From the NCBI GenBank assembly GCA_018433775.1, contig JAHDQN010000005.1, positions 10,272 to 74,271 on the forward strand: DNA of 64,000 bases. Reading direction: 5' to 3'. The position numbers and the translations under genes were made by a program. The stretch comes from Deltaproteobacteria bacterium. GTDB taxonomy: Bacteria; Desulfobacterota; Desulfomonilia; UBA1062. Within the stretch, counting starts at the first letter, position 1, and each line of letters begins with the position of its first letter. This document shows positions 19,681 through 33,877 of the stretch, piece after piece. Below the pieces are notes generated by a model. It was not told where the DNA came from, ran no database searches, and saw nothing but the letters and a program-made list of their open reading frames with translations.

Positions 19681-20562
19681 ATGCAGGACCCGAAACCCTC
19701 CAATGCCGAGATCGCATCCGAGCTCGACAGCATAGCGGATCTCCTGGATGCCGGAGAGGCCAACGTCTTCCGGGTCAGGGCGTACCGTCAGGGCGCCCGT
19801 CAGGTGAGGCACACAGAAGACCCGCTGGCCGATCTGGTGCTGGAGGGCAGGGAGGATAGGCTCAAGGATCTGCCCGATATCGGCGAAGGACTGGCCGGGG
19901 TGATCGCGGAGTTCGTAAGGACCGGCAGGACCGCTCTCCATCAGGATCTTCTGGGCGAGGTTTCCCCTGCGGACGTCTTCAGGCAGGTGCCCGGAATCGG
20001 GGACGATCTGGCTCGAAGGGTGGTTGAATCACTGGGCCTGTCGACCCTGGAAGAGCTGGAACGTGCCGCATACGACGGGAAGCTGGGCCGGGTGGAGGGC
20101 TTCGGCGAACGGCGGGTGCAGATGGTCAGGGACGTCCTTGCAGGCATGTTGAGCAGGTCGGCCGGAAGGATGCTCCGCAAGGACGCGGCGGACAAAGGCG
20201 GGACCCCGGAGAAGCCCCCGCTGGGCCTGCTGCTGGAGATCGACAGGGAGTACCGGGACAAGGCGGCTCAAGACAAACTGCGCACGATCGCCCCCAAGCG
20301 GTTCAACCCCGAGGGCAGAGCCTGGCTGCCGGTAATGAGCGTCCGGAGGAAAGGCTGGGACTTCACCGTCCTGTACTCGAACACGCAACGCGCTCATGAG
20401 CTCCGTAAAATCCGCGACTGGGTGGTGATTTATTATGATCACGACGGATCGGGGGGGCAGGTGACCGTGGTAACGGATACCCTCGGCGACCTTGGAAAGC
20501 AGCGGGTGGTCAGGGGACGGGAGAGGGAAAGCTTCCATTATCATGCCTCCAGGGTGACATGA
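19681..20562 (+). CDS. DNA polymerase X (Pol-beta-like) N-terminal region only (8-kDa/lyase domain plus HhH fingers), fused to an uncharacterized ~110-aa C-terminal domain; no palm or PHP domains
   Basis: NAEIASELDSIADLLDAGEANVFRVRAYRQGARQV is the PolX N-terminal signature. HhH motifs are LKDLPDIGEGLAG and FRQVPGIGDDLARR. The C-terminus is ...RKGWDFTVLYSNTQRAHELRKIRDWVVIYYD... Confidence 0.6.
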   Translation: MQDPKPSNAEIASELDSIADLLDAGEANVFRVRAYRQGARQVRHTEDPLADLVLEGREDRLKDLPDIGEGLAGVIAEFVRTGRTALHQDLLGEVSPADVFRQVPGIGDDLARRVVESLGLSTLEELERAAYDGKLGRVEGFGERRVQMVRDVLAGMLSRSAGRMLRKDAADKGGTPEKPPLGLLLEIDREYRDKAAQDKLRTIAPKRFNPEGRAWLPVMSVRRKGWDFTVLYSNTQRAHELRKIRDWVVIYYDHDGSGGQVTVVTDTLGDLGKQRVVRGRERESFHYHASRVT

Positions 20563-20604: not shown

Positions 20605-21546
20605 TTGAAATCCCGCCTGGAAAAGAGAACGGAGAATAATGGTATGACCCTGGAGAGAGTGCGCCCTGGATCAGCCGATCCCCGGCTCAAGAAGAGCTAT
20701 GATCGCGCGATTGCCATCCTGATCGGGGGGAATGCGGCTCTCGCCCTCATAAAGGGTGTGCTGGCATGGACGACCGGGAGCAGCGCGATCTTCTCGGATG
20801 CGGCAAATTCCTTTGCCGACACGCTGTACAGCATACTGATGGGCATTGGACTCTCCCTGTCGCAGAAGCCCGCTGACATCAGCCACCCGCAAGGCCACAG
20901 CCGGTTCGACCCCCTCATCGGCATGCTGGTCACCGCCGCCATGGCAGGGGCAGGGGCTGCCGCCCTGTACGAGAGCATCCAGCGGTTCCTGGGAGATGTC
21001 CGGACCATTCCGCTTCCTTTGCCGACCCTGGTGCTGCTCACGGCTGCCCTGATCAAGCTGGTCATGTACCGGTCGATATCACGGATCGGGCGGAAGACCG
21101 GCAGCCCGGCAATACACGCCGGCGCACAGGACAATCTGATGGACACGCTCACCACTGCCTCTGCGATGATCGGTATATGGGGCGCCCGATACCTGCATCC
21201 CATAGCCGATCCGGTGGCCGGGGTTCTGGTTGCTCTGTGGATCTTCCGGACCACCTGGAGGGTTGGCAGGCAGAGCCTCGGTTATCTCACGGGACGCGGA
21301 GCCGAGCAGGAGGTTGTCAGGGAGATCATTCACAGGGCAGGGCAAGTGCCCGGCGTGGAAAACGTCCACCGGGTGATCGCCGATTATGTGGGGCCGAAGC
21401 TTCGCGTGGAGATCCATGTGGGAGTCGACGGCAGGATCACGCTGGAGCGCGCCCACGGAGTGTCCGATGAGGTGGAGGCAAGGATCAAGACCCTGCCGAG
21501 CGTGGACCTTGTGTTTGTCCATGTGGACCCGGTCCGCAAGACATGA
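20605..21546 (+). CDS. Cation diffusion facilitator (CDF) family divalent-metal efflux transporter
   Basis: TM1-2 motif ALIKGVLAWTTGSSAIFSDAANSFAD and the HxxxD-type site are present. There is a C-terminal cytoplasmic domain. The start could be ATG 20644. Confidence 0.7.
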   Translation: MKSRLEKRTENNGMTLERVRPGSADPRLKKSYDRAIAILIGGNAALALIKGVLAWTTGSSAIFSDAANSFADTLYSILMGIGLSLSQKPADISHPQGHSRFDPLIGMLVTAAMAGAGAAALYESIQRFLGDVRTIPLPLPTLVLLTAALIKLVMYRSISRIGRKTGSPAIHAGAQDNLMDTLTTASAMIGIWGARYLHPIADPVAGVLVALWIFRTTWRVGRQSLGYLTGRGAEQEVVREIIHRAGQVPGVENVHRVIADYVGPKLRVEIHVGVDGRITLERAHGVSDEVEARIKTLPSVDLVFVHVDPVRKT

Positions 21547-21624: not shown

Positions 21625-22794
21625 CTATTTACGGAATCTCAGGCGCAGAATCTTGTCGTCACCCTCTCTGGGGGTCCCCCTGCCGTCGCGATTGCTCGTC
21701 AGCACGTAGAGGCTGCCGTCGGGTCCTGTCGTGACATGCCTGAGCCTTCCATGTTCCCCTCGGTACCAGTCGGTTGCAAAGAGCCTCTGGATCGATTCTG
21801 TTTCATAGCTGCCGTTCCTGTGCCGGAACGATATGCGGATGAGCGCTTCGCCCCGCAGGCTTGCCACGTAGAGAACCCCGCGGGAAAAGGTCATGCCGGC
21901 GGGAGGCGTCGCCTTGGGCCAGAACACGACGGGATCCTCATAGGGCTCCATGTCCACGGCACCGAGGACCAGAGGCCAGCCGTAGTTTCCCCCTTTGCGG
22001 ACGACATTGATCGAATCGCTCCCGAAGAGGCCGAACTCGCCGGAGGGGCCGTGCTCGGAGGAAAAAAGATCACCGGTATCGGGATGCCAGGCGAGCCCCT
22101 GGGGATTGCGGTGCCCGTACGAATACACCGGTGAATCGCGGAACGGGTTGTCCCCGGGAACGTCCCCCTCAGGGGTGTAGCGGAGTATCTTGCCGCCCAG
22201 GTTCTCGATATCCTGCGCAATGCCGGCCCGGCCTATGTCCCCGGTGCATACGTAGAGCATGCCGTCCGGACCGAACGCGATCCTGCCGCCGTCGTGCACC
22301 CGATGCCCGGGGATCCTTTCCACGATGATCCTGTCCTGCGCCGCGGTCTCACCCGTGTCGCGCAGCCGGACGACCTTGTTGAACAGGTCCGTTCCGACCC
22401 GGTAGGTATACATGATGTAGACATAGGGCTGCTCGGGATAATCCGGGTGCACCGCCAGGCCCATCAATCCCCCCTCGCCGATCGCCGCGGTATCTACTGT
22501 TGCGTAGGGCTCGTCTGTCAGCCGCCCGTTCACGATGAGACGGACCCTGCCAGGCCTTTCCGTCACCAGAGCCCTGCCGTCGGGCAGAAAATCGAGATCC
22601 CAGGGGACTTCGAGATTTTCCACGAAAGGTTCCACAAGAAAATCTCCGGGCTCAGGAACAAACACGTCCTCTACTTCCTGCGGCTGCCCGCCGACAACCG
22701 GATCCCCGGCATCCGGTTCACGCGAGGCCTCGGACCGGACAACGCCTGCGGCGACGACCAGCACGGCGATGAGGATCCAGTGCAGGCCGGACAT
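21625..22794 (-). CDS. PQQ-dependent sugar dehydrogenase (soluble glucose/sorbosone dehydrogenase, beta-propeller) with a signal peptide
   Basis: Start at comp 22794, with GGGAGG about 5 nt upstream. Signal peptide MSGLHWILIAVLVVAAGVV. Motifs DGRALVTERPGRVRL, LMGLAVHPDY, GHRNPQGLAWHP, and a C-terminal GPDGSLYV propeller repeat. Confidence 0.7.
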   Translation of the reverse strand: MSGLHWILIAVLVVAAGVVRSEASREPDAGDPVVGGQPQEVEDVFVPEPGDFLVEPFVENLEVPWDLDFLPDGRALVTERPGRVRLIVNGRLTDEPYATVDTAAIGEGGLMGLAVHPDYPEQPYVYIMYTYRVGTDLFNKVVRLRDTGETAAQDRIIVERIPGHRVHDGGRIAFGPDGMLYVCTGDIGRAGIAQDIENLGGKILRYTPEGDVPGDNPFRDSPVYSYGHRNPQGLAWHPDTGDLFSSEHGPSGEFGLFGSDSINVVRKGGNYGWPLVLGAVDMEPYEDPVVFWPKATPPAGMTFSRGVLYVASLRGEALIRISFRHRNGSYETESIQRLFATDWYRGEHGRLRHVTTGPDGSLYVLTSNRDGRGTPREGDDKILRLRFRK

Positions 22795-23327
22795 GGCAGC
22801 CTCCCTCATGAGAATACGGCGGAACACCCGCCTATGGAACTGTTTTTCCCGATTCATCATTGGTTCTCCCTGAATCCTCCTCCTTCTTCTCAGTCAGCTA
22901 CTCAAGGACTCGGAGGGAGGGGTCACATTATCTTCTAGCTTCAGGCTTCAACTGGATCCAGGGCTTGCCCTGGGGTCCATGCCATTGAATGACACCATGA
23001 AAAATTCCTCGATTCCTTGATAGTGAAGAATAAGGATGTCCTCTCCAAGCTCAATCGGAAAGACCCTTCCTTGTCCGGGTGAAGGGATGCCCTGCCGGTG
23101 ATGATGAGGATGCGGGTGAATGGATTTTCTGGGGGAAGGCACCGGCGGTACAGGGCGAGGGCGCTTCGGAAAAGAAGTTAGGAAAATCCTTGCCTTCGAC
23201 GCCATGGAATACACGGCGGGCGGTTGTTTTTTAAGGGCAATGGCATCAGGTATCTGTGAGATAATACGTCTGGTTATGGTATTCCCCGGTCGGATAAAAG
23301 AAGAGAATTCTCCAGAAGAAGCGATCA

Positions 23328-23355
23328 TTGAGAATGGTAAGTGAAGGCTTATAAT
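23328..23355 (+). promoter_or_regulatory. Candidate sigma-70-type promoter for the small-gene array (TTGAGA -35 at 23328-23333, 16-bp spacer, TATAAT -10 at 23350-23355)
   Basis: A perfect TATAAT hexamer lies about 60 nt upstream of ATG 23416. This is read by eye only. Confidence 0.3.
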
Positions 23356-23415
23356 AAGTATTCAGTACATCCTTGGTTGTGGAAGAACATCAGGAATATC
23401 TGTGAGGTAAGGCAC

Positions 23416-23607
23416 ATGGCAGTACATCCGATCGACTTGGAGAGGTATCTGAGCGGTATCATGTTTCCCGCGAGCAAGAACGATCTGAGGCAGAAAGCCC
23501 GCGACAACCATGCCCCCGATGTCGTCATCGATATCATCAATAACCTGCCGGAACGGAATTTTTCCTCGTCGGGAGACCTGAGCAAGGCTGTCGACGAGAT
23601 CGAGTGA
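23416..23607 (+). CDS. DUF2795-like small protein, paralog 1 (63 aa)
   Basis: RBS GAGGTAAGG precedes the ATG. MAVHPIDLERYLSGIMFPASKNDLRQKARDNHAPDVVIDIINNLPERNFSSSGDLSKAVDEIE carries the motif shared by all six paralogs. Confidence 0.7.
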   Translation: MAVHPIDLERYLSGIMFPASKNDLRQKARDNHAPDVVIDIINNLPERNFSSSGDLSKAVDEIE

Positions 23608-23689
23608 CTTGGGGGCACGTTTGCGGCGGCCGGGCGTGAACCCGCCGAGGGCGGTGAACCCCGGTGATGGCACAGCGAGGAGAGAGAGG

Positions 23690-23881
23690 ATGGAAATCAA
23701 TACAGCCGAAATACAGTGGTACCTGGAAAATATCACTTTCCCGGCGACCAAGATGCAGATCGTGAACCTTGCACGAGACAACCATGCGCCCGACGGCGTC
23801 ATGGATCTGCTCAAGGGGTTGCCGGACCAGGAATATTCGTCGCCAGACGAGGTCATACGGACCGCAGGCGTGAAGCAGTAG
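23690..23881 (+). CDS. DUF2795-like small protein, paralog 2 (63 aa)
   Basis: RBS GAGGAGAGAGAGG precedes the ATG. MEINTAEIQWYLENITFPATKMQIVNLARDNHAPDGVMDLLKGLPDQEYSSPDEVIRTAGVKQ. Confidence 0.7.
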   Translation: MEINTAEIQWYLENITFPATKMQIVNLARDNHAPDGVMDLLKGLPDQEYSSPDEVIRTAGVKQ

Positions 23882-23987
23882 GCAAGGCCAGGTTGGGAAA
23901 AGTGGAAGCTGAAAACTCGATGTGGCGTTGGAAATTCTCGGATGATGAGCAGAGGTGTTTTTTGAAAAACCAAACTGGAGGTGAAAA

Positions 23988-24176
23988 ATGGTAAGTACAG
24001 GAGAAATTCAGCAGTTTCTTCACGGTATGGACTATCCGGCACGGAGGAATGATCTGGTCAAGAAGGCACAGAGCAACAATGCGCCCGGCGATGTGATCGA
24101 CATGCTCAGCAAGTTGCCGGACCAGGATTTCAACTCCCCGGTGGACGTCAACAAGGCTATCGGGAAAATGTCGTAA
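23988..24176 (+). CDS. DUF2795-like small protein, paralog 3 (62 aa)
   Basis: RBS GGAGGTG precedes the ATG. MVSTGEIQQFLHGMDYPARRNDLVKKAQSNNAPGDVIDMLSKLPDQDFNSPVDVNKAIGKMS. Confidence 0.75.
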   Translation: MVSTGEIQQFLHGMDYPARRNDLVKKAQSNNAPGDVIDMLSKLPDQDFNSPVDVNKAIGKMS

Positions 24177-24205
24177 CTCCCCCCTTAAAGCGATTGGAAA
24201 TAAGA

Positions 24206-24246
24206 CAGGAAATCATCTGAACAAAGATGGTTTCCTGTTCTTGTAT
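24206..24246 (+). terminator. Terminator-like hairpin after paralog 3 (CAGGAAATCATC-tgaacaaa-GATGGTTTCCTG, then TTCTTGTAT)
   Basis: 12-bp stem with one U-G wobble (24206-24217 / 24226-24237) followed by a T-rich tract. It separates the two halves of the array (395-bp gap). Confidence 0.4.
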
Positions 24247-24570
24247 CCTCCGGAAGACGAGAGCCGTTCCGGCGAAAAATGGAGAAAAAACCAAGAGAGC
24301 CGGGCGCCGAGAGAATACAGGAATCTTCTCACCACATGGGTCATCCCGCAAAAAGAACATCATCCCTGACAAGCCCGACAGCACAATGAACCCGATGACG
24401 TCGCCGGATGGTCTCAAAGAAGCTGCCCGGATACAGTCCATCTCAGCCCCGGACCCGAGCAGGGAGTGTGGGGGATAGCGAACAGCGCGTGACCCGAGCA
24501 GGTGGCCGGAACGCATCGCAAGCCCCTCAGGCAAGAACCCCGGCATTGATAAGGGAAAGGAGGAACGGGC

Positions 24571-24774
24571 ATGGCAAGATACGGCGATGTGAGCGCCGCA
24601 GAGGTGCAGCAGTTTCTGCACGGACTAGATTATCCTGCAAGAAAGAACGATCTGATAAAGAAAGCCCGTGACAACGGCGCGTCCGACGATGTCATGAGTG
24701 TGCTGAACGATTTCCCGGATCAGGACTTCATTTCGCCGATGGACGTGAGCAAGGCGATCGGTGGCTTAAGGTAA
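24571..24774 (+). CDS. DUF2795-like small protein, paralog 4 (67 aa)
   Basis: RBS AAGGAGGA precedes the ATG. MARYGDVSAAEVQQFLHGLDYPARKNDLIKKARDNGASDDVMSVLNDFPDQDFISPMDVSKAIGGLR. Confidence 0.75.
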   Translation: MARYGDVSAAEVQQFLHGLDYPARKNDLIKKARDNGASDDVMSVLNDFPDQDFISPMDVSKAIGGLR

Positions 24775-24854
24775 CCAGGTTCCAAAGGTCTGAGTAACAG
24801 GTGTACGACAGTCCCCGTTCTCAGGCAAGCACAATGCCGGAGAAGGAGTGGATA

Positions 24855-25046
24855 ATGGCTGTAAGCGCAGTGGAGTTGCAACATTATCTTCAAGGAATGG
24901 ATTATCCCTCGCGAAAAGAGGACCTCATCAGGAAGGCGCGTGAGAATCAGGCCCCCCGGGATGTAATCGATCTCATCAACAATCTCCCGGACCGGGAGTT
25001 CAACTCGACGGTGGATGTCAGCAGGGCGGTGGGTGAGATCGGATGA
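24855..25046 (+). CDS. DUF2795-like small protein, paralog 5 (63 aa)
   Basis: RBS GAAGGAG lies 6 nt before ATG 24855. MAVSAVELQHYLQGMDYPSRKEDLIRKARENQAPRDVIDLINNLPDREFNSTVDVSRAVGEIG. Confidence 0.7.
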   Translation: MAVSAVELQHYLQGMDYPSRKEDLIRKARENQAPRDVIDLINNLPDREFNSTVDVSRAVGEIG

Positions 25047-25152
25047 TCGTATAGTCCGTACACAAATGGGAATCAGGTGCAAGAGGCCCTGTGGGATCGG
25101 ATGCATCATCCGTCCTCATGCTTTTTGAAAAAGTCGTGAAGGATGCAAGCTC

Positions 25153-25341
25153 ATGACAGGCACTGCCGGTATGCAGGAATTCCTGGGAGATATCGATTAC
25201 CCCGAGGATACGGGAGCGATCGTGAAGCATGCGCAGTCCATGGGAGCCCCTCAGGGCGTGATCGACATGCTCAGGAAACTTCCCGACAGGATGTATGGCA
25301 ATGCCGCGGAGATCAATCAGGCAATCGGGGATATCGAGTAG
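25153..25341 (+). CDS. DUF2795-like small protein, paralog 6 (62 aa, most divergent)
   Basis: MTGTAGMQEFLGDIDYPEDTGAIVKHAQSMGAPQGVIDMLRKLPDRMYGNAAEINQAIGDIE. The YP..., AP.GVIDML and LPD motifs are retained. Confidence 0.65.
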   Translation: MTGTAGMQEFLGDIDYPEDTGAIVKHAQSMGAPQGVIDMLRKLPDRMYGNAAEINQAIGDIE

Positions 25342-25474
25342 GCATTCATCGGAAGCGGAATCATGGTGAGCAGTGCCCGGATTCTCTGACGCCTCAAGGA
25401 GGGAGAGGCCTTCCGCAGACCGGCCGGCAGAAGTTCCTCCATGGCGATATCCCATGATCTTCCGAAGGAATGCT

Positions 25475-26896
25475 TCAGGGCAAGGCCGGGGCAGCGGCGC
25501 TCTTCGGGGACATCGATGTCCCGGGTATGCCCTGGTGATAATAGCCGGTCTTGAGGCGGTTCAGGTAACCGGCATTTTCCCTGGCCCATCTGCGGATGAG
25601 CATATAGCCTCCCAGACGGTATCCGGCTCTCCAGGCCCGGCCGGGCCGGTAGGCGTCGAGCACGTTCCTGACACTATAGAACCTCTTCATCTGGCGGACG
25701 ATCTCCACCTGCATCTCGTAGGCGGAGCACGTCGCGGGCTTCACCACCACGTGCATGCCGTCATAGTAGCGCCAGCACTGGTGAAGGATCCGGTCCCGGT
25801 AATCCTCGTGGCTCTGCGTGCCAGGGAAAGGGGTGAGCGCGCAGATCTGTATGGTGTCGATGTCGGTCTCCATCGCATAATCGACGATCTTTTTCACCGA
25901 ATCGAGCGTATCGTCGGGACCGACCACGAACATCCCGTGGATGCCGATGCCGTGGCAATGGAGATTGTCGATGCACCGGGGGATCACCTGCGCCTGGTGC
26001 GCCTTGCCCATCCGTTTCAGGGCGTCGTCGTCGATGGACTCGATGCCTACGTACACCGTCCGGCAGCGCGTCTTGCGCATGAGATCGAGCAGCTCATCAT
26101 CGAGGGCCGCCTTGATGGCCATCTCCCCCGACCACCTGAGCGGTACGGCGTCGCGGTCGATCATCTCCCTGAGCAGAGATTTGGCCCGGTTGGGATCGGC
26201 GCAGAAGTTGTCGTCGCCGAAGCACACGCTGCGATGGAGCAGGGGCCTGAGCTCGCTGATGACCTGCTCGTTGCTCTTGAACCGGTATTTCCGCCCGAAG
26301 ACCGCGGTCACCGTGCAGAAGGTGCACTTGTGGGGGCAGCCCCGCGAGGTCGTGATGATCGGTGGAACGCTTGCGCCGGTCATCTGGGGGCACAGGGAAA
26401 AATCCGGGGAAGGCAGGCCGGCGAAATCGACGTGCCCGCTGCTCTCCGTGATCCTCAGCGCCCCATCGGAGCGGAGAAAGGCCAGGCCTCCCACGGACTC
26501 CGGATCTCCGCCTTTTTCGATCGAATCGATCAGCGAGAGGAGGACATCCTCCCCTTCGCCCATCACGACATAGTCGCAGTGATCGAGTGCTTCCCGCGGC
26601 ATGAAGGTGGCATGGGGCCCGCCCATCACGACCGTGGTACGGCTTTCCCTGAGCGAATCGGCAAGCCGGTATGCCGACTCGATGGTGCTGGTGAGGGATC
26701 CGATTCCCACTACGTCATAGGCCCGGAGGTCATCGGCGTTGACGGGAGAGAGGGCTTCGAAAAAGATATCGCAGGCATGTCCTTGCTGCTTCAGCACGGC
26801 CCCCATGGTGGGGATGCCCACCCTCGGGAGGTATGTTCTGCTGAAGATATGCGTTGACGGAGTCCCTGATTCAACAAGTGCTATTCTCAAGCCCAT
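25475..26896 (-). CDS. B12-binding-domain radical SAM protein (class B radical SAM)
   Basis: N-terminal cobalamin-binding-like Rossmann region (..YDVVGIGSLTSTIESA.., DYVVMGEGE). Radical-SAM cluster motif CPHKCTFC. There is a C-terminal extension. Confidence 0.75.
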   Translation of the reverse strand: MGLRIALVESGTPSTHIFSRTYLPRVGIPTMGAVLKQQGHACDIFFEALSPVNADDLRAYDVVGIGSLTSTIESAYRLADSLRESRTTVVMGGPHATFMPREALDHCDYVVMGEGEDVLLSLIDSIEKGGDPESVGGLAFLRSDGALRITESSGHVDFAGLPSPDFSLCPQMTGASVPPIITTSRGCPHKCTFCTVTAVFGRKYRFKSNEQVISELRPLLHRSVCFGDDNFCADPNRAKSLLREMIDRDAVPLRWSGEMAIKAALDDELLDLMRKTRCRTVYVGIESIDDDALKRMGKAHQAQVIPRCIDNLHCHGIGIHGMFVVGPDDTLDSVKKIVDYAMETDIDTIQICALTPFPGTQSHEDYRDRILHQCWRYYDGMHVVVKPATCSAYEMQVEIVRQMKRFYSVRNVLDAYRPGRAWRAGYRLGGYMLIRRWARENAGYLNRLKTGYYHQGIPGTSMSPKSAAAPALP

Positions 26897-27138
26897 AACG
26901 AAGCGCTCCTTTCATTCATTATTCCACTTCAAGGACAGGCGTTTTCACCTTAACATGCAGGGGTGGAATAGCAATCCCTTTGCTCTTTTTTTACGTTTCC
27001 CGCGGGGAAGGGGCTGTATGGCCTTTTTAAGGCAAGGGATCTCTTAGAAGAGCCGCGGTTTTTGTTTTTCGTCCTTGTGGGAATTCTTGGAGAGGTTATA
27101 AGGGAGTACAGGCGAGTTTCATGAAACAGGAGGGAAAA

Positions 27139-30014: not shown

Positions 30015-31499
30015 ATGGAATCCGTTATCACTGAATCTGCCCGAGACGCCTTTGACCGCATTTTTCACCCCCGGAGTGTGGCGATCGTCGGGGTATCGGC
30101 CCGGGGGAACGTCTTCGGCACCGGAATACTGAGCGCCTTGAAGGCAATCGGATTCGAGGGAAGGCTTTATGCGGTGAACCCCAAGGGCGGCGAGTACAAC
30201 GGGATGAAGATCTATACCGGACTGAGCGAGATACCCGAGCCGATCGATTTCGCCATTATTGCGGTGCCTGCCGAGCGTGTGCCCCAGGCCCTCGAAGAGT
30301 GCAGGCTCGTGGGCGTGGCCGGTGCGGAGATCCTTTCGGCCGGGTTCTCCGAGCTGGGCACCGAGGCGGGGTCCCGCCTCGAACAGGAGATCAGGGACAT
30401 CGCCTCCCGCGGCATCAGGGTGGTCGGACCGAACTGTTTCGGCATCTACTGTCCCTTGAGCGGCCTCACCCTCCTTCCCGGACCGGACCTCTCCCGGAAG
30501 AGCGGGCCCGTGGGCTTCGTGTCCCAGAGCGGAGGCATGTCCATCGACTTCGCCCATATCGGCAAGTGGATGGGGATCGGGTTTTCCAAGGTGGTGAGCT
30601 TCGGCAACGGCGCCGACCTGAGAGAAATCGAGCTGCTGGAATATCTCGGCAGCGACCCTGAAACCCGGGTGATCGCCATGTATATCGAAGGCGTCAAGGA
30701 TGGCAGGCGGTTTTTCCGGGTTCTGAAGGAGGTTGCCGCGAGAAAGCCGGTGATCGTCAACAAGGGAGGGCTCACCGAGGCGGGCGCCAGGGCGGTGGAG
30801 AGCCATACCGCATCCATGGGCGGCAGCAAACGCATCTGGGAGGCCGTACTGAGACAGGCAGGGGCCGTGCAGGTGGGAGACCTCTGGGAGATGGCCCAGA
30901 CATGTCTGGCCTTTTCCCTGCTGCCGCCCCGGGTGTACGGGCACATCACCGTGGCCGGAGGAGGCGGGGCCTTAGGCGTGAGTGCATGCGATGAGGCCGA
31001 GCGCTACGGCCTGAGCATCCCCCCGCTCGATCCTGAAATAACCGAAGCCATTCTCCAGCACCTGCCCAGGCCCGGATCCAGTGCCAAGAACCCCATCGAC
31101 GCGGCCAACCCCTTCGTGGGTCCACAGGCCTACCGGGAGGTCTTCCTCAATGCGGCCGGAGATCCCCGGGTGGACGTCCAGATTCTCATCCAGCTCCTCC
31201 ACCACTACAAGTCCCTGTCATCGGCAATGGGCCTGACGTCCCCCAAGGAGGTCGCGCCCTACCGGCAGCTGGCCGACGGGATGAAAGAGGTGGCAGATAT
31301 CACCGGCAAACCCCTCATGCTGGTGCTTCCCGACTTCAAGCAGGGTATGGAGTCCATGGACATCGAGGAGATGATCCGGGAGGCCAGGGGCATATTCCTG
31401 GACAGGGGCATCCCGGTGTTCGACGACCTGGGCGACTGCCTGAGGGCTCTCGGCCATGTCTCGCGATACTATGCAGTGAGAAAGGCGAGGGGGCTGTAG
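30015..31499 (+). CDS. ADP-forming acyl-CoA synthetase alpha-like / CoA-binding-domain protein (paralog A)
   Basis: CoA-binding Rossmann motif PRSVAIVGVSARGNVFGTGIL. Ligase-CoA domain GIRVVGPNCFGIYCP. The phospho-His loop region reads VSQSGGMSIDFAHIGKWMGIGFSKVVSFGN, with an Ile in place of the Gly of the canonical GHAGA loop. No ATP-grasp beta subunit lies nearby. Confidence 0.65.
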   Translation: MESVITESARDAFDRIFHPRSVAIVGVSARGNVFGTGILSALKAIGFEGRLYAVNPKGGEYNGMKIYTGLSEIPEPIDFAIIAVPAERVPQALEECRLVGVAGAEILSAGFSELGTEAGSRLEQEIRDIASRGIRVVGPNCFGIYCPLSGLTLLPGPDLSRKSGPVGFVSQSGGMSIDFAHIGKWMGIGFSKVVSFGNGADLREIELLEYLGSDPETRVIAMYIEGVKDGRRFFRVLKEVAARKPVIVNKGGLTEAGARAVESHTASMGGSKRIWEAVLRQAGAVQVGDLWEMAQTCLAFSLLPPRVYGHITVAGGGGALGVSACDEAERYGLSIPPLDPEITEAILQHLPRPGSSAKNPIDAANPFVGPQAYREVFLNAAGDPRVDVQILIQLLHHYKSLSSAMGLTSPKEVAPYRQLADGMKEVADITGKPLMLVLPDFKQGMESMDIEEMIREARGIFLDRGIPVFDDLGDCLRALGHVSRYYAVRKARGL

Positions 31500-32389: not shown

Positions 32390-33877
32390 ATGGAGGGGCT
32401 TCCGGCCTGGAAAAGCCGGATAAAGACATCAGAGATGGGTGGTGCTATGCATACTTTTTTTCATCCCGAATCCGTTGCCGTCATAGGGGCGTCGAACTCA
32501 CCTTTTAACCTGGGGGCCACCATCTGCAGGGCCTTGAACGAGATCTCCCCGTGGGGCGGGGCCGTCTGCGCCGTGAACCGCAAGGGCGAGACCGTGCACG
32601 GGTGCCCGGGCTATGTTGCCGTGACGGATATCCCGCAGGAAATCGATCTGGCGGTGATCATCACCCCGGCAGCCGTGGTTCCGCAGTTCGTGGAGCAGTG
32701 TGCGGAAAAAGGCATCAGGCACGTGATCATCGAAAGCTCGGGGTTCTCGGAGGGGGGCGAGCAGGGCAGGGCCATGCAGCGCCGGATCGATGAGACCGCG
32801 CGAACGCACGGCATGCGGATCATGGGCCCCAACTGCCTGGGCGTGCTCAACACCCGGAATCAGTTCTGCTGCTTCTACGGCATCCAGGCAGACGATTTCC
32901 ACACCTTTGCCCAGGAGAGCGGTGCGGTCTCCTACATCATCCAGAGCGGCGGGATCGTGGTGATCGTGCTGGAGTCGTTCACCACGGACGTGGTCAAGGC
33001 CAACAAGATCGTGAGCATCGGCAACAAATCGGACATCGACGAGGCCGACGTGCTGGAGTACTTCGACCGGGACGAGTCCACCGAGGTCATCGGCATGTAC
33101 CTCGAGAACATCAAGGACGGCAGGAAGTTCATCGAGACGGCCCGGAGGGTGAGAAAGCCCATCCTGGTCTTCAAGGTCGGAAGGACCGGCGAGGGCGCGC
33201 GGGCCGCCATGTCGCACACCGCGGGCATGGCAAACAACGACGACATCTTCGACAATGCGTGCACTCAGGCGGGTGTCATCCGGGTGAACTCCATCTCCGA
33301 GCTCCATGCCATGCCCAAGATTTTCACGCACATGCCGCCTCTGAAGGGCAGGAGGATCGCGGTGTTCACCAACTCGGGCGCCTTCGGCGGCATCACCGCC
33401 GATCTGCTGGTGCAGGCAGGCCTGGAGATGGCCCGCCTCTCGCCCGCCACCCAGGAGAAGCTGAGCAGGACGGGCCAGATCTTCAACGTGGCGAACCCCA
33501 TCGACCTGGGCCCGGCCCTTTCCATGCAGACCTTTCTGGAGATTTTCGACATCCTGCTTTCATCCGGCGAGGTGGACGGGCTCCTGCCGGTGCCGAGCCT
33601 CTGGCACCCCATGGTGATCGACGCCATTGTCGAGCTGGTGAAGAAATGCCATGAATACGGCAAGCCTGCCGCGATCTATACGCCCAATGCCGTGCACAAG
33701 ACCGTGACCTACCGGCAGAAGTACCAGGTGCCGATCTTCGAGTCGCCCGAGGAGGCGGTCCGGGCGCTGCAGGTCTCCTACCGGCAATACCGCTATGGAG
33801 AGATGAAGGACGCGCTCCGGAACCTGTCAGGTGCCGGGCATCGGGAAGAGCACCTGGTCGCCCAGGGCGCGCTCTGA
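32390..33877 (+). CDS. ADP-forming acyl-CoA synthetase alpha-like / CoA-binding-domain protein (paralog B)
   Basis: PESVAVIGASNSPFNLGATI, GMRIMGPNCLGVLN, IQSGGIVVIV. The architecture is the same as the 30015-31499 gene. The start could be ATG 32447 (MHTFFHPESV...). Confidence 0.65.
   Translation: MEGLPAWKSRIKTSEMGGAMHTFFHPESVAVIGASNSPFNLGATICRALNEISPWGGAVCAVNRKGETVHGCPGYVAVTDIPQEIDLAVIITPAAVVPQFVEQCAEKGIRHVIIESSGFSEGGEQGRAMQRRIDETARTHGMRIMGPNCLGVLNTRNQFCCFYGIQADDFHTFAQESGAVSYIIQSGGIVVIVLESFTTDVVKANKIVSIGNKSDIDEADVLEYFDRDESTEVIGMYLENIKDGRKFIETARRVRKPILVFKVGRTGEGARAAMSHTAGMANNDDIFDNACTQAGVIRVNSISELHAMPKIFTHMPPLKGRRIAVFTNSGAFGGITADLLVQAGLEMARLSPATQEKLSRTGQIFNVANPIDLGPALSMQTFLEIFDILLSSGEVDGLLPVPSLWHPMVIDAIVELVKKCHEYGKPAAIYTPNAVHKTVTYRQKYQVPIFESPEEAVRALQVSYRQYRYGEMKDALRNLSGAGHREEHLVAQGAL

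Follow-up and report, generated by a model that had tools for sequence, protein, structure and literature searches.

A conserved array of diverged DUF2795 (PF11387) paralogs in the bacterial order UBA1062

The domain DUF2795 (PF11387) describes a protein family of about 3,244 clusters at 50% identity, for which we found neither a solved structure nor a characterised homolog. The domain was rarely mentioned in the literature that we searched, and no mention of the accession PF11387 was found. In Nitrosospira multiformis a DUF2795 protein accounted for 0.37% of the proteome (PMC5960693), and the list of intracellular proteins that are induced in Streptomyces SirexAA-E includes another (PMC12772271). 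Single-domain members are found in Actinomycetota, Cyanobacteriota, Pseudomonadota and other phyla, and consist of one full-length domain of 60-75 aa. Other members (e.g. P0045-P0058) combine several mutually different modules in one polypeptide. Among the 147 best-scoring representatives, a list biased to multi-repeat proteins, 70 held 2-7 repeats with low-complexity linkers. In these proteins the repeats are separated by disordered linkers or abut directly, and fusions to PRC-barrel domains and membrane anchors were found, in some multi-repeat proteins at the N-terminus.

In other phyla, single-copy DUF2795 genes were often located in islands of stress genes. The genomes of Burkholderia stagnalis and B. 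multivorans encode the domain within an island of BON, SDR, DUF4142, ferritin-like/DUF892 and ADH genes, to which B. stagnalis adds a glucose 1-dehydrogenase and two Hsp20 genes. DUF4142 and ferritin-like genes are also the neighbours in Caballeronia, while the Rhizobium gene comes after a sigma-factor gene and a metagenomic contig showed a glutathione peroxidase gene next to DUF2795. Many of the single-copy genes examined have unrelated neighbours. A link to the Burkholderia lxa low-oxygen locus was considered and could not be established, the DUF2795 island being located on a different replicon.

Within the window, i.e. the whole 64-kb stretch of DNA that was analysed, we found an array of six intact DUF2795 genes, all on the + strand and encoding acidic products of approximately 7 kDa. 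The original prediction of six same-strand genes for proteins of 62-67 aa, each with its own Shine-Dalgarno site, was confirmed. With stop codons included, the genes are located at 23416-23607 (gene 1, paralog type 1; 63 aa, 60 bits to PF11387), 23690-23881 (gene 2, type 2; 63 aa, 67.6 bits), 23988-24176 (gene 3, type 3; 62 aa, 69.5 bits), 24571-24774 (gene 4, type 4; 67 aa, 65.7 bits), 24855-25046 (gene 5, type 5; 63 aa, 67.7 bits) and 25153-25341 (gene 6, type 6; 62 aa, 58.5 bits). All six products thus scored far above the PF11387 gathering threshold of 25 bits (58.5-69.5 bits, E values from 6e-16 to 2e-19), and in every copy the match extended from position 2 or 3 to position 53 or 54 of the 54-position model. 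The family had therefore been assigned correctly before, under the wrong accession (PF10991 instead of PF11387). The conserved residues of the family (L11, P17, K20, A27, A32 and V54 in gene 3 numbering) are kept in copies 1-5 except for K20R in gene 3 and V54L in gene 1, whereas gene 6 has lost the near-invariant Lys20 to Thr and shows Ile in place of V54. Close relatives of these genes are already labelled as DUF2795 domain-containing proteins in NCBI records, and the array genes belong to this catalogued, uncharacterised family.

The array products share with the single-domain members both the full-length domain and the motif L..G..YPA.K..L...A...A......L..LP....(F/Y).S..DV..A. The arrangement differs: single-domain members are typically encoded by one monocistronic copy, whereas the arrays of this clade consist of 5-10 diverged paralogs in fixed order behind one promoter. 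Like the multi-repeat proteins, the array provides several mutually different modules that are used together, but as separate genes with their own ribosome-binding sites, so that the ratios between the modules can differ. A GGAGG-like Shine-Dalgarno sequence precedes each of the six starts, the weakest being that of gene 6 (GAAGGA). Pairwise identity among the six products ranged from 26 to 63%, with only 26-45% between gene 6 and the other five copies; the copies are as diverged as had been proposed, over a wider range than the 35-60% given at the time. The type 4 product carries an N-terminal extension (MARYGDVS), and type 2 is the most distinctive, with the signature residues W9, E12, N25 and L26. 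Between copies, identical amino acids were encoded by the same codon in just 30-63% of cases. The array is therefore not a nucleotide-repeat artefact; such an artefact would have refuted the original prediction.

The spacers between the genes measure 82, 106, 394, 80 and 106 nt, near to the previous values of 83, 107, 395, 84 and 107 bp. Their GC content (0.72, 0.45, 0.56, 0.54 and 0.49, respectively) is not uniformly low, contrary to what had been thought, compared to 0.51-0.56 in the genes and 0.60 in the window. The short gene starts are the true ones and the longer open reading frames are read-throughs, in agreement with the earlier reading: the -10 box of the array promoter falls downstream of the GTG of the long gene 1 frame, and orthologous spacers differ in length by non-multiples of 3, so that an N-terminal extension cannot be conserved.

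Related loci, gathered with a single array protein as query, showed that eight relatives within the order UBA1062 (Desulfomonilia_A, Candidatus Phosphitivorax and relatives; L001-L008) carry such arrays too, with 5-10 copies and a shared gene order, which answers the question raised in the original prediction of whether relatives carry multi-copy arrays. Two genomes outside the clade, a Daviesbacteria MAG and an Arthrobacter, contained a single copy. When 57 copies from 8 clade genomes were placed in a tree with the two single-copy outgroups, they grouped by position and not by genome. Types 1, 2 and 5 each formed a clade (bootstrap 99, 100 and 90, respectively) with exactly one copy from each of the 8 genomes. 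Type 4 was supported with a bootstrap of 100 among close genomes and is absent from L004. The core types 1, 2, 3 and 5 were present in every genome sampled, and type-specific residues were 100% conserved across the order. Ratios of dN/dS were 0.03-0.19 for type 1, 0.11-0.24 for type 2, 0.00-0.24 for type 3, 0.12-0.21 for type 4 and 0.07-0.14 for type 5. Types 1-5 are thus under purifying selection and represent old, individually maintained paralogs, as originally suggested. Type 6 is the exception: it showed a dN/dS of 0.85 in comparison to L002, is absent from L003 and L005, and is, judged by these values, divergent and under relaxed constraint. Extra duplicates were found in L008. Within the order UBA1062 the array is ancient and has undergone birth-and-death turnover, with 5-10 copies around a core of four types, and it provides a clean example of this mode of evolution in small genes. 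We regard its identity and this evolutionary picture as close to certain.

An ancient 3+3 block duplication, which had been proposed on account of the hairpin in the long spacer, did not hold. The pairs it predicts (1-4, 2-5 and 3-6) are only 43, 37 and 45% identical, closer pairs are 3-4 (63%), 3-5 (55%) as well as 1-5 and 4-5 (54%), and the tree also fails to group the predicted pairs. The 394-nt spacer is instead explained by a decayed seventh copy. This frameshifted pseudogene lies at 24306-24480 on the + strand and reads AERIQESSHHMGHPAKRTSSL, followed after the frameshift by QARQHNEPDDVAGWSQRSCPDTVHLSPGPEQGVWGIA. Matches of this region to intact copies in a tblastn search were split over two frames, and the best of them included L007_4 and L008_6, the paralog that L007 and L008 carry between type 3 and type 4; the seventh copy is thus still intact in two distant relatives. 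A frameshift-tolerant HMM gave 9.4 bits in the window, a score reached by 2 of 150 shuffled sequences, and 12.0 and 13.9 bits for the corresponding regions of L001 and L002, which none of 150 shuffles reached in either case. A DNA profile search yielded 12.4 bits in L001 and 19.9 bits in L002 (0 of 300 shuffles each) and nothing reportable for the seventh copy in the window's own long spacer. The region is deleted in L003, L004 and L005. What is new at this locus is the promoter conserved in nine loci, a conserved hairpin and the remnant of the seventh copy, the latter two both lying in the long spacer.

The promoter, located at 23328-23360 on the + strand, is of the sigma-70 type and close to consensus (-35 box TTGAGA at 23328-23333, a 16-nt spacer, and -10 box TATAAT at 23350-23355), with a scan score of 11/12. 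A conserved AAnTAnTnAGnAC block follows the -10 box. The motif occurs once within the 64 kb and is kept in 9 of 9 loci, including the distant L006-L008, where the surroundings are unalignable. A strong stem-loop follows gene 3 at about 24200-24244 (+ strand), so that the hairpin previously placed at 24206-24246 is real and slightly shifted; it probably serves either as a partial intrinsic terminator or to stabilise the RNA. The region 24177-24290 folded with -41.2 kcal/mol (z = -5.3 compared to shuffles). The stem is conserved and the loop variable in L003, L004 and L005, and in L004 a T-run follows the hairpin. Its U-tail is weak in the window, and it was therefore missed by a simple terminator scan. 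A weak terminator-like site was found at 25099-25115, ahead of gene 6. Over 22000-27000 the sole Rfam match was ALIL, at chance level (15.8 bits; gathering score 50). Two transcription units had been suggested; the conserved hairpin fits such a division, but no promoter-like site was found upstream of gene 4 in the promoter scan. We rather propose that one promoter would drive high-level transcription of the whole array, and that the hairpin would cut read-through or stabilise the upstream RNA, leaving genes 1-3 in excess over genes 4-6. The signals for the strong expression originally expected are present, and high expression of the array from its conserved promoter is, on these signals, probable. 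For stress-induced expression, which had been suggested along with it, the sequence gives no indication. The conserved promoter is of the housekeeping and not of a stress-sigma type, and a link to stress therefore relies on guilt by association in other phyla.

What the array might do can be approached from the family as a whole. The array proteins would not be enzymes but small modules that bind or protect and work stoichiometrically. The family appears to work in multiples: in other lineages 2-7 copies are fused through flexible linkers, or copies are tethered to a membrane anchor or a PRC-barrel domain, and the UBA1062 clade would arrive at a like multiplicity by way of separate genes, each of them specialised. 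Stress, starvation or persistence would most likely be the physiological setting. That the proteins are abundant, non-enzymatic modules of stress or persistence which act in several copies is the leading but tentative proposal for their role; we consider it somewhat less than evenly probable, and the overall explanation, array and proposed role together, falls only just short of even.

The copy-specific conservation could alternatively reflect a defined hetero-oligomer, in which the paralogs would be subunits with fixed positions and the array a polyprotein split into genes, the counterpart of the fused multi-repeat proteins. The conserved gene order, the signature residues kept across the order and the existence of natural fusions of 2-7 repeats are compatible with such an assembly, and a directly fused two-domain relative was modelled with a continuous bridging helix (pTM 0.67). 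However, copy number varies between 5 and 10, types 4 and 6 were lost from the genomes named above, one copy is a pseudogene in the window and L008 carries extra duplicates. Most fused repeats are moreover held on long disordered linkers, suggesting independent modules, and a single copy suffices in most bacteria. We therefore judge the hetero-oligomer unlikely. The array reveals no system of a new kind and is of value as a well-defined entry point to DUF2795. With 5-10 specialised copies maintained behind a near-perfect promoter, the clade lends itself to the study of the domain. The conserved core types, signature residues and probable high expression suggest that the array matters to the physiology of slow-growing anaerobes, the Ca. 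Phosphitivorax-type syntrophs commonly met in anaerobic digesters.

The AlphaFold2 model of the gene 3 product, the only one of the six that was modelled, showed four helices (pLDDT 93, pTM 0.80) arranged in two helix-loop-helix units with a short beta-bridge between them; within the domain, the sequences of the other five products could be aligned with it gap-free. Residues that the family conserves appear to be structural and not to form a catalytic set. No significant match of the model to solved structures was found. An alignment of the N- and C-terminal halves with hhalign reached a probability of 25%, so that an internal duplication is undetectable in sequence, and the two-fold symmetry of the domain appears, in the model, to be structural only. 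The same layout of four helices in two helix-loop-helix units with beta-bridged loops is known from MTH865 (PDB 1iio) and EF-hand pairs, which might suggest metal-binding or buffering proteins, or metallochaperones, for divalent-cation homeostasis. The 12-residue EF-hand loop (acidic residues at 1, 3, 5 and 12, Gly at 6) is not found in the array products, however. Inspection of the alignments showed Y-P-A and L-P-D-x-x-F in the DUF2795 loops, the would-be ligand sites being taken by residues that are variable or hydrophobic, and no significant structural match of DUF2795 to an EF-hand pair was obtained. We consider metal binding quite improbable.

The first helix-loop-helix of DUF2795, (F/Y)L.G..YPA.(K/R)..L, further resembles the Ish1/HeH domain (PF10281). 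This might indicate HeH/SAP/Ish1-like nucleoid or nucleic-acid binders that would coat and shield DNA or RNA while cells grow slowly or lie dormant. The alpha/beta-type small acid-soluble spore proteins (SASPs) are likewise a multi-paralog set, with a length of about 60-70 aa and a stoichiometric mode of action. The comparison is one of analogy and not of homology, any DNA binding by DUF2795 being putative: sequence and fold are unrelated, and SASP genes are dispersed and under a sporulation sigma factor, unlike the array. Nucleic-acid binding would agree with the Ish1 matches in each repeat of P0045 (sum E = 1e-18) and in a single repeat (E = 0.0097), with the near-invariant Lys20 and further basic residues in helix 2, and with small, probably abundant, multi-paralog proteins. 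The Ish1 cutoff was exceeded by multi-repeat DUF2795 proteins alone, and only through summation; a related single repeat reached a sub-threshold 16.7 bits (gathering threshold 26.6 bits), and none of the six window proteins matched PF10281 at E <= 1. DUF2795 also differs in packing a second helix-loop-helix on the first. We consider this reading rather unlikely, slightly more so than the hetero-oligomer. An extended version, equally doubtful, would see the diverged paralogs as a counterpart of the fused multi-repeat proteins that is encoded by separate genes. These HeH-like modules would assemble on a polymer of the cell, for example the nucleoid or ribosomes, or bind it multivalently, and would protect this polymer in syntrophic or phosphite-oxidising bacteria of extremely slow growth. 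Paralog-specific surfaces would then fix the role of each copy, and the ratio of the copies would be determined by the internal hairpin. Were this so, the array would be the handle by which a function is assigned to the whole family, with its roughly 3,000 clusters.

Both neighbours of the array named in the original prediction were found again, a GSDH-type PQQ dehydrogenase upstream (- strand, divergent) and a convergent B12-binding radical SAM gene downstream. The GSDH is the sole neighbour conserved beside the array, in L001-L007 and down to 65% identity. The DUF2795 proteins might then be accessory partners of PQQ-dependent sugar dehydrogenases such as this one. A DUF2795 gene of Paraburkholderia sprentiae overlaps by 8 nt with the start of a membrane-bound PQQ glucose/quinate dehydrogenase, and other sugar dehydrogenases adjoin DUF2795 elsewhere. 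Yet L008, holder of the largest array, lacks GSDH, most family members examined have no such neighbour, and adjacency to a PQQ dehydrogenase or to CDF did not recur in four further Burkholderiaceae contexts. The PQQ enzymes of the two cases belong to different families, and the start of GSDH reads as hydrophobic and signal-like whereas the DUF2795 products show no visible signal peptide. Such a partnership seems very improbable, a shade more so than metal binding.

Tandem small genes beside a class-B radical SAM gene are also the typical layout of RiPP precursor peptides and their B12-dependent modifying enzyme, and the enzyme showed a weak, sub-threshold likeness to RiPP methyltransferase models. 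It reached no NCBIfam family cutoff, though, and its gene is convergent and absent beside the arrays of L006-L008. The array products are conserved over their full length, without the pattern of a leader and a hypervariable core, the gene 3 model is confidently globular, and DUF2795 genes are mostly single-copy without a radical SAM neighbour. In the absence of both a leader/core pattern and a co-conserved maturase, the precursor reading is largely refuted, with hardly any probability left to it.

Searches of the array proteins against NCBIfam and PADLOC (E <= 1) gave no hits and the phage genome collection contained no homologs; membership in anti-phage defence was rejected, as no PADLOC model matched. 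A foreign origin of the array was likewise discarded: its GC3 of 0.64-0.72 is modestly lower than the 0.75-0.83 of neighbouring genes, and no strong signal was seen. Antisense open reading frames cross the array (e.g. 23362-24042, - strand) and were taken as spurious, such frames being common in GC-rich DNA.

The window encodes a real and well-conserved array of paralogs from a family that is already catalogued and uncharacterised; new at this locus are its multi-gene organisation, a conserved promoter, a hairpin and a pseudogene. All six small genes of the original prediction were found on the + strand, at 23416-23607 (gene 1, 63 aa), 23690-23881 (gene 2, 63 aa), 23988-24176 (gene 3, 62 aa), 24571-24774 (gene 4, 67 aa), 24855-25046 (gene 5, 63 aa) and 25153-25341 (gene 6, 62 aa), and each start codon was preceded by the expected Shine-Dalgarno site, a GGAGG-like sequence (6/6). 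The six products matched the full Pfam model PF11387 (DUF2795) with 58-70 bits at a gathering score of 25 bits; the family had thus been recognised correctly under a wrong accession (PF10991). Pairwise identities among the copies were 26-63% and not 35-60% as first estimated. Where residues were identical between copies, only 30-63% of them had the same codon as well, and therefore the array consists of coding sequences that have diverged, and not of a repeat at the DNA level, an artefact that had been dismissed from the start. All six exact proteins were already present in public collections, where close relatives are labelled 'DUF2795 domain-containing protein', their accessions running consecutively, and where one UniRef entry names an anaerobic digester metagenome as source. 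One 80-aa homolog of gene 5 (P0021) bears the JGI name 'coproporphyrinogen III oxidase-like Fe-S oxidoreductase', which looks like an annotation error, possibly transferred from the neighbouring radical SAM gene.

Related arrays occur within the order UBA1062, which is home to the published DPO MAGs of class Desulfomonilia_A including Ca. Phosphitivorax. The MAGs carrying them include SV3-B1.1, Phox-21 (Ca. Phosphitivorax anaerolimi), UBA1062 and others, and contig JAHDKO010000048 (Deltaproteobacteria MAG LM3-B1m) showed about 96-97% protein identity to the window. The suggested search for multi-copy arrays in relatives returned 6, 6, 5, 6, 5, 7, 6 and 10 tandem genes by HMM scan in the related loci L001-L008, respectively, and one DUF2795 copy in each of two out-of-clade matches, a Daviesbacteria MAG and Arthrobacter agilis. 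In a neighbour-joining tree of 57 DUF2795 copies, grouping was determined by array position and not by genome. Types 1, 2 and 5, named like all types after array position, were recovered from 8/8 genomes with bootstrap values of 99, 100 and 90. Type 3 (bootstrap 60) was likewise found in 8/8 genomes with additional duplicates in L008, and type 4 (bootstrap 100 among close genomes, its distant members being assigned through a common N-terminal extension) was missing from L004.

That these are old, individually maintained paralogs, as originally proposed, follows from these clades together with dN/dS values of 0.03-0.24 between the window and its orthologs for types 1-5 (dS often being saturated) and signature residues of each type with 100% conservation throughout the order, e.g. 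W9, E12, N25 and L26 in type 2. Gene 6 does not fit this pattern and appears to be drifting: compared with L002 its dN/dS was 0.85, Thr stands in place of the near-invariant Lys20, and L003 and L005 lack the gene. The proposed duplication of a three-gene block found no support in the identities of the pairs 1-4, 2-5 and 3-6 (only 43, 37 and 45%), with higher values outside these pairs (3-4 63%, 3-5 55%, 1-5 54%, 4-5 54%).

A promoter-like TTGAGA-16-TATAAT at 23328-23355 (score 11 of 12) occurs once in the window. Both this motif and a AAnTAnTnAGnAC block downstream of it were kept at all nine loci, even in L006-L008 with their unalignable flanks. The short gene starts are the real ones, as had been argued, because the 88-aa ORF has its GTG upstream of the -10 box and the spacers of orthologous loci differ in length by numbers not divisible by three. 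Two three-gene transcription units had been envisaged; since there is no promoter-like site ahead of gene 4, we read the array as one putative operon whose internal hairpin would have an attenuating or stabilising effect. The spacers were not low in GC, and the promoter type by itself gives no sign of the stress induction once suggested. The 3' half of the spacer between genes 2 and 3 (23930-23987, TTGGAAATTCTCGGATGATGAGCAGAGGTGTTTTTTGAAAAACCAAACTGGAGGTGAAAA) was by eye about 90% conserved between the window and L004, in contrast to the saturated synonymous sites in the flanking genes; it holds a small A/U hairpin (GGTTTTT/AAAAACC) directly ahead of the gene 3 Shine-Dalgarno site and might act in translation or in RNA stability. 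A weak terminator-like site was seen between genes 5 and 6 (25099-25115).

Genes 3 and 4 are separated by 394 nt that hold a stem-loop and the remnant of a seventh DUF2795 copy. The predicted hairpin (about 24200-24244) is strong, with -41.2 kcal/mol and z = -5.3 for the folded segment 24177-24290; L003, L004 and L005 keep the stem while the loop varies, and a T-run follows it in L004. The remnant (about 24306-24480, + strand) is matched by intact copies in two reading frames, and among the best of these are L007_4 and L008_6, which represent the paralog that comes after type 3 and before type 4 in their loci. A frameshift-tolerant protein HMM gave 9.4 bits for the window spacer, a score reached by 2/150 shuffles, and a DNA profile search (nhmmer) of this spacer returned nothing reportable. 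The L001 spacer, 92% identical to that of the window, scored 12.0 bits (0/150 shuffles) and 12.4 bits with nhmmer (0/300), and the L002 spacer 13.9 bits (0/150) and 19.9 bits (0/300). In L002 the remnant still reads ILKGLPGMQNGSAADMSRTLGG, the L008_6 equivalent being ILNQLPDQEYGSAAEVSRAIGK, and in L003, L004 and L005 this part was deleted and the hairpin kept. Lineage-wide, the case for a putative pseudogene is therefore strong; for the spacer of the window itself it is moderate, and the spacer length would reflect gene decay and not a duplicated-block boundary.

An AlphaFold2 model of gene 3 (42 aligned sequences; pLDDT 93, pTM 0.80) has helices at residues 4-10, 20-29, 34-41 and 51-61 and two loops joined by single-residue beta-bridges at 18 and 48, so that the predicted fold is one of paired helix-loop-helix units. 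Metal binding in the manner of EF-hands by such products seems improbable to us. The first helix-loop-helix resembles the HeH-type motif Ish1, because Ish1 matches in multi-repeat proteins fall within each DUF2795 repeat. This is a resemblance only: one repeat reached 16.7 bits (E = 0.0097), below the cutoff of 26.6 bits, and none of the six window proteins matched the Ish1 model. We consider HeH-like nucleic-acid binding by the array products rather unlikely.

An exhaustive profile search yielded 3,244 family clusters at E <= 0.001. Among the best 147 representatives, a list biased to multi-repeat proteins by their higher scores, 77 had one domain, 51 two, 14 three and 5 four to seven. Repeats were joined by low-complexity linkers or abutted directly, and the domain partners were PRC-barrel domains and N-terminal membrane anchors. 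The model of a directly fused two-domain relative has a continuous bridging helix (pLDDT 81, pTM 0.67). Two proteins of 800-1050 aa (P0045, P0064) showed, on reading their sequences, several N-terminal transmembrane-like hydrophobic segments, then a linker rich in Ala, Pro and Thr and, at the C-terminus, 4-6 DUF2795 repeats that alternate between two subtypes, a layout that would tether the domain to a membrane.

Whereas these fused proteins carry several repeats in one polypeptide, the array consists of separate specialised genes; the UBA1062 clade might thus achieve by separate genes the multiplicity that other lineages would obtain by fused repeats. Assembly of the array products into one defined hetero-oligomer is an unlikely reading. 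We tentatively favour the view that the products are non-enzymatic modules with a binding or protective role, made in abundance and acting several at a time, with a probable place in the physiology of stress or persistence. Literature mentions of DUF2795 were found only in proteome work, in which a member made up 0.37% of the proteome of Nitrosospira multiformis (PMC5960693) and another was among the induced intracellular proteins of Streptomyces SirexAA-E (PMC12772271). Single-copy genes are mostly monocistronic with variable neighbours, and certain contexts recur. Burkholderia stagnalis and B. multivorans have the gene in an island of BON, SDR, DUF4142, ferritin-like/DUF892 and ADH genes, with glucose 1-dehydrogenase and two Hsp20 genes additionally in B. 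stagnalis; DUF4142 and ferritin-like genes are neighbours in Caballeronia, a sigma-factor gene precedes it in Rhizobium, and a glutathione peroxidase gene adjoins it on one metagenomic contig.

Upstream of the array lie genes for a PolX-like HhH protein, a CDF cation-efflux protein and a GSDH-type PQQ dehydrogenase (- strand), and downstream a convergent B12-binding radical SAM gene and a GH57 branching enzyme gene, which agreed with the neighbours originally named, the PQQ dehydrogenase and the radical SAM gene. The GSDH gene (21625-22860) is the sole neighbour conserved beside the array in L001-L007, and in Paraburkholderia sprentiae (L029 4450-7231) a DUF2795 gene shares 8 nt with the beginning of the gene for a membrane-bound PQQ glucose/quinate dehydrogenase. 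Four other Burkholderiaceae contexts, however, had no PQQ dehydrogenase adjacency, and a partnership of the array products with PQQ sugar dehydrogenases appears very improbable. RiPP precursors, suggested by the radical SAM neighbour, were essentially excluded, as this gene is missing beside the arrays of L006-L008 and its product stays below every NCBIfam family cutoff. Inside the radical SAM gene, a weak match to the Rfam ALIL pseudoknot (25624-25724, - strand; 15.8 bits, E = 0.81, gathering score 50) is almost certainly due to chance.

Downstream synteny is not conserved, since the genes following the array differ: a VgrG-like gene (Phage_GPD and Gp5 domains) in the distant relative L006 (9394-11460), a PP2C phosphatase gene in L007, and DUF362 Fe-S and NlpC/P60 genes in L008. 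The PolX-like gene (19681-20562) encodes a 293-aa product with only N-terminal HHH_8 and HHH_5 helix-hairpin-helix domains; it appears to be without the polymerase and PHP parts, because its match to the NCBIfam PolX model covers positions 6-150 of 571. The CDF gene (20605-21546) lies two genes upstream of the array, and in Arthrobacter agilis (L010 7989-9297) 25 nt separate the single DUF2795 gene from a downstream CDF gene in the same orientation. Farther downstream, two paralogous genes close together (30015-31499 and 32390-33877) with CoA_binding and Succ_CoA_lig domains are of the acyl-CoA synthetase type by domain content, and both were kept in related loci.
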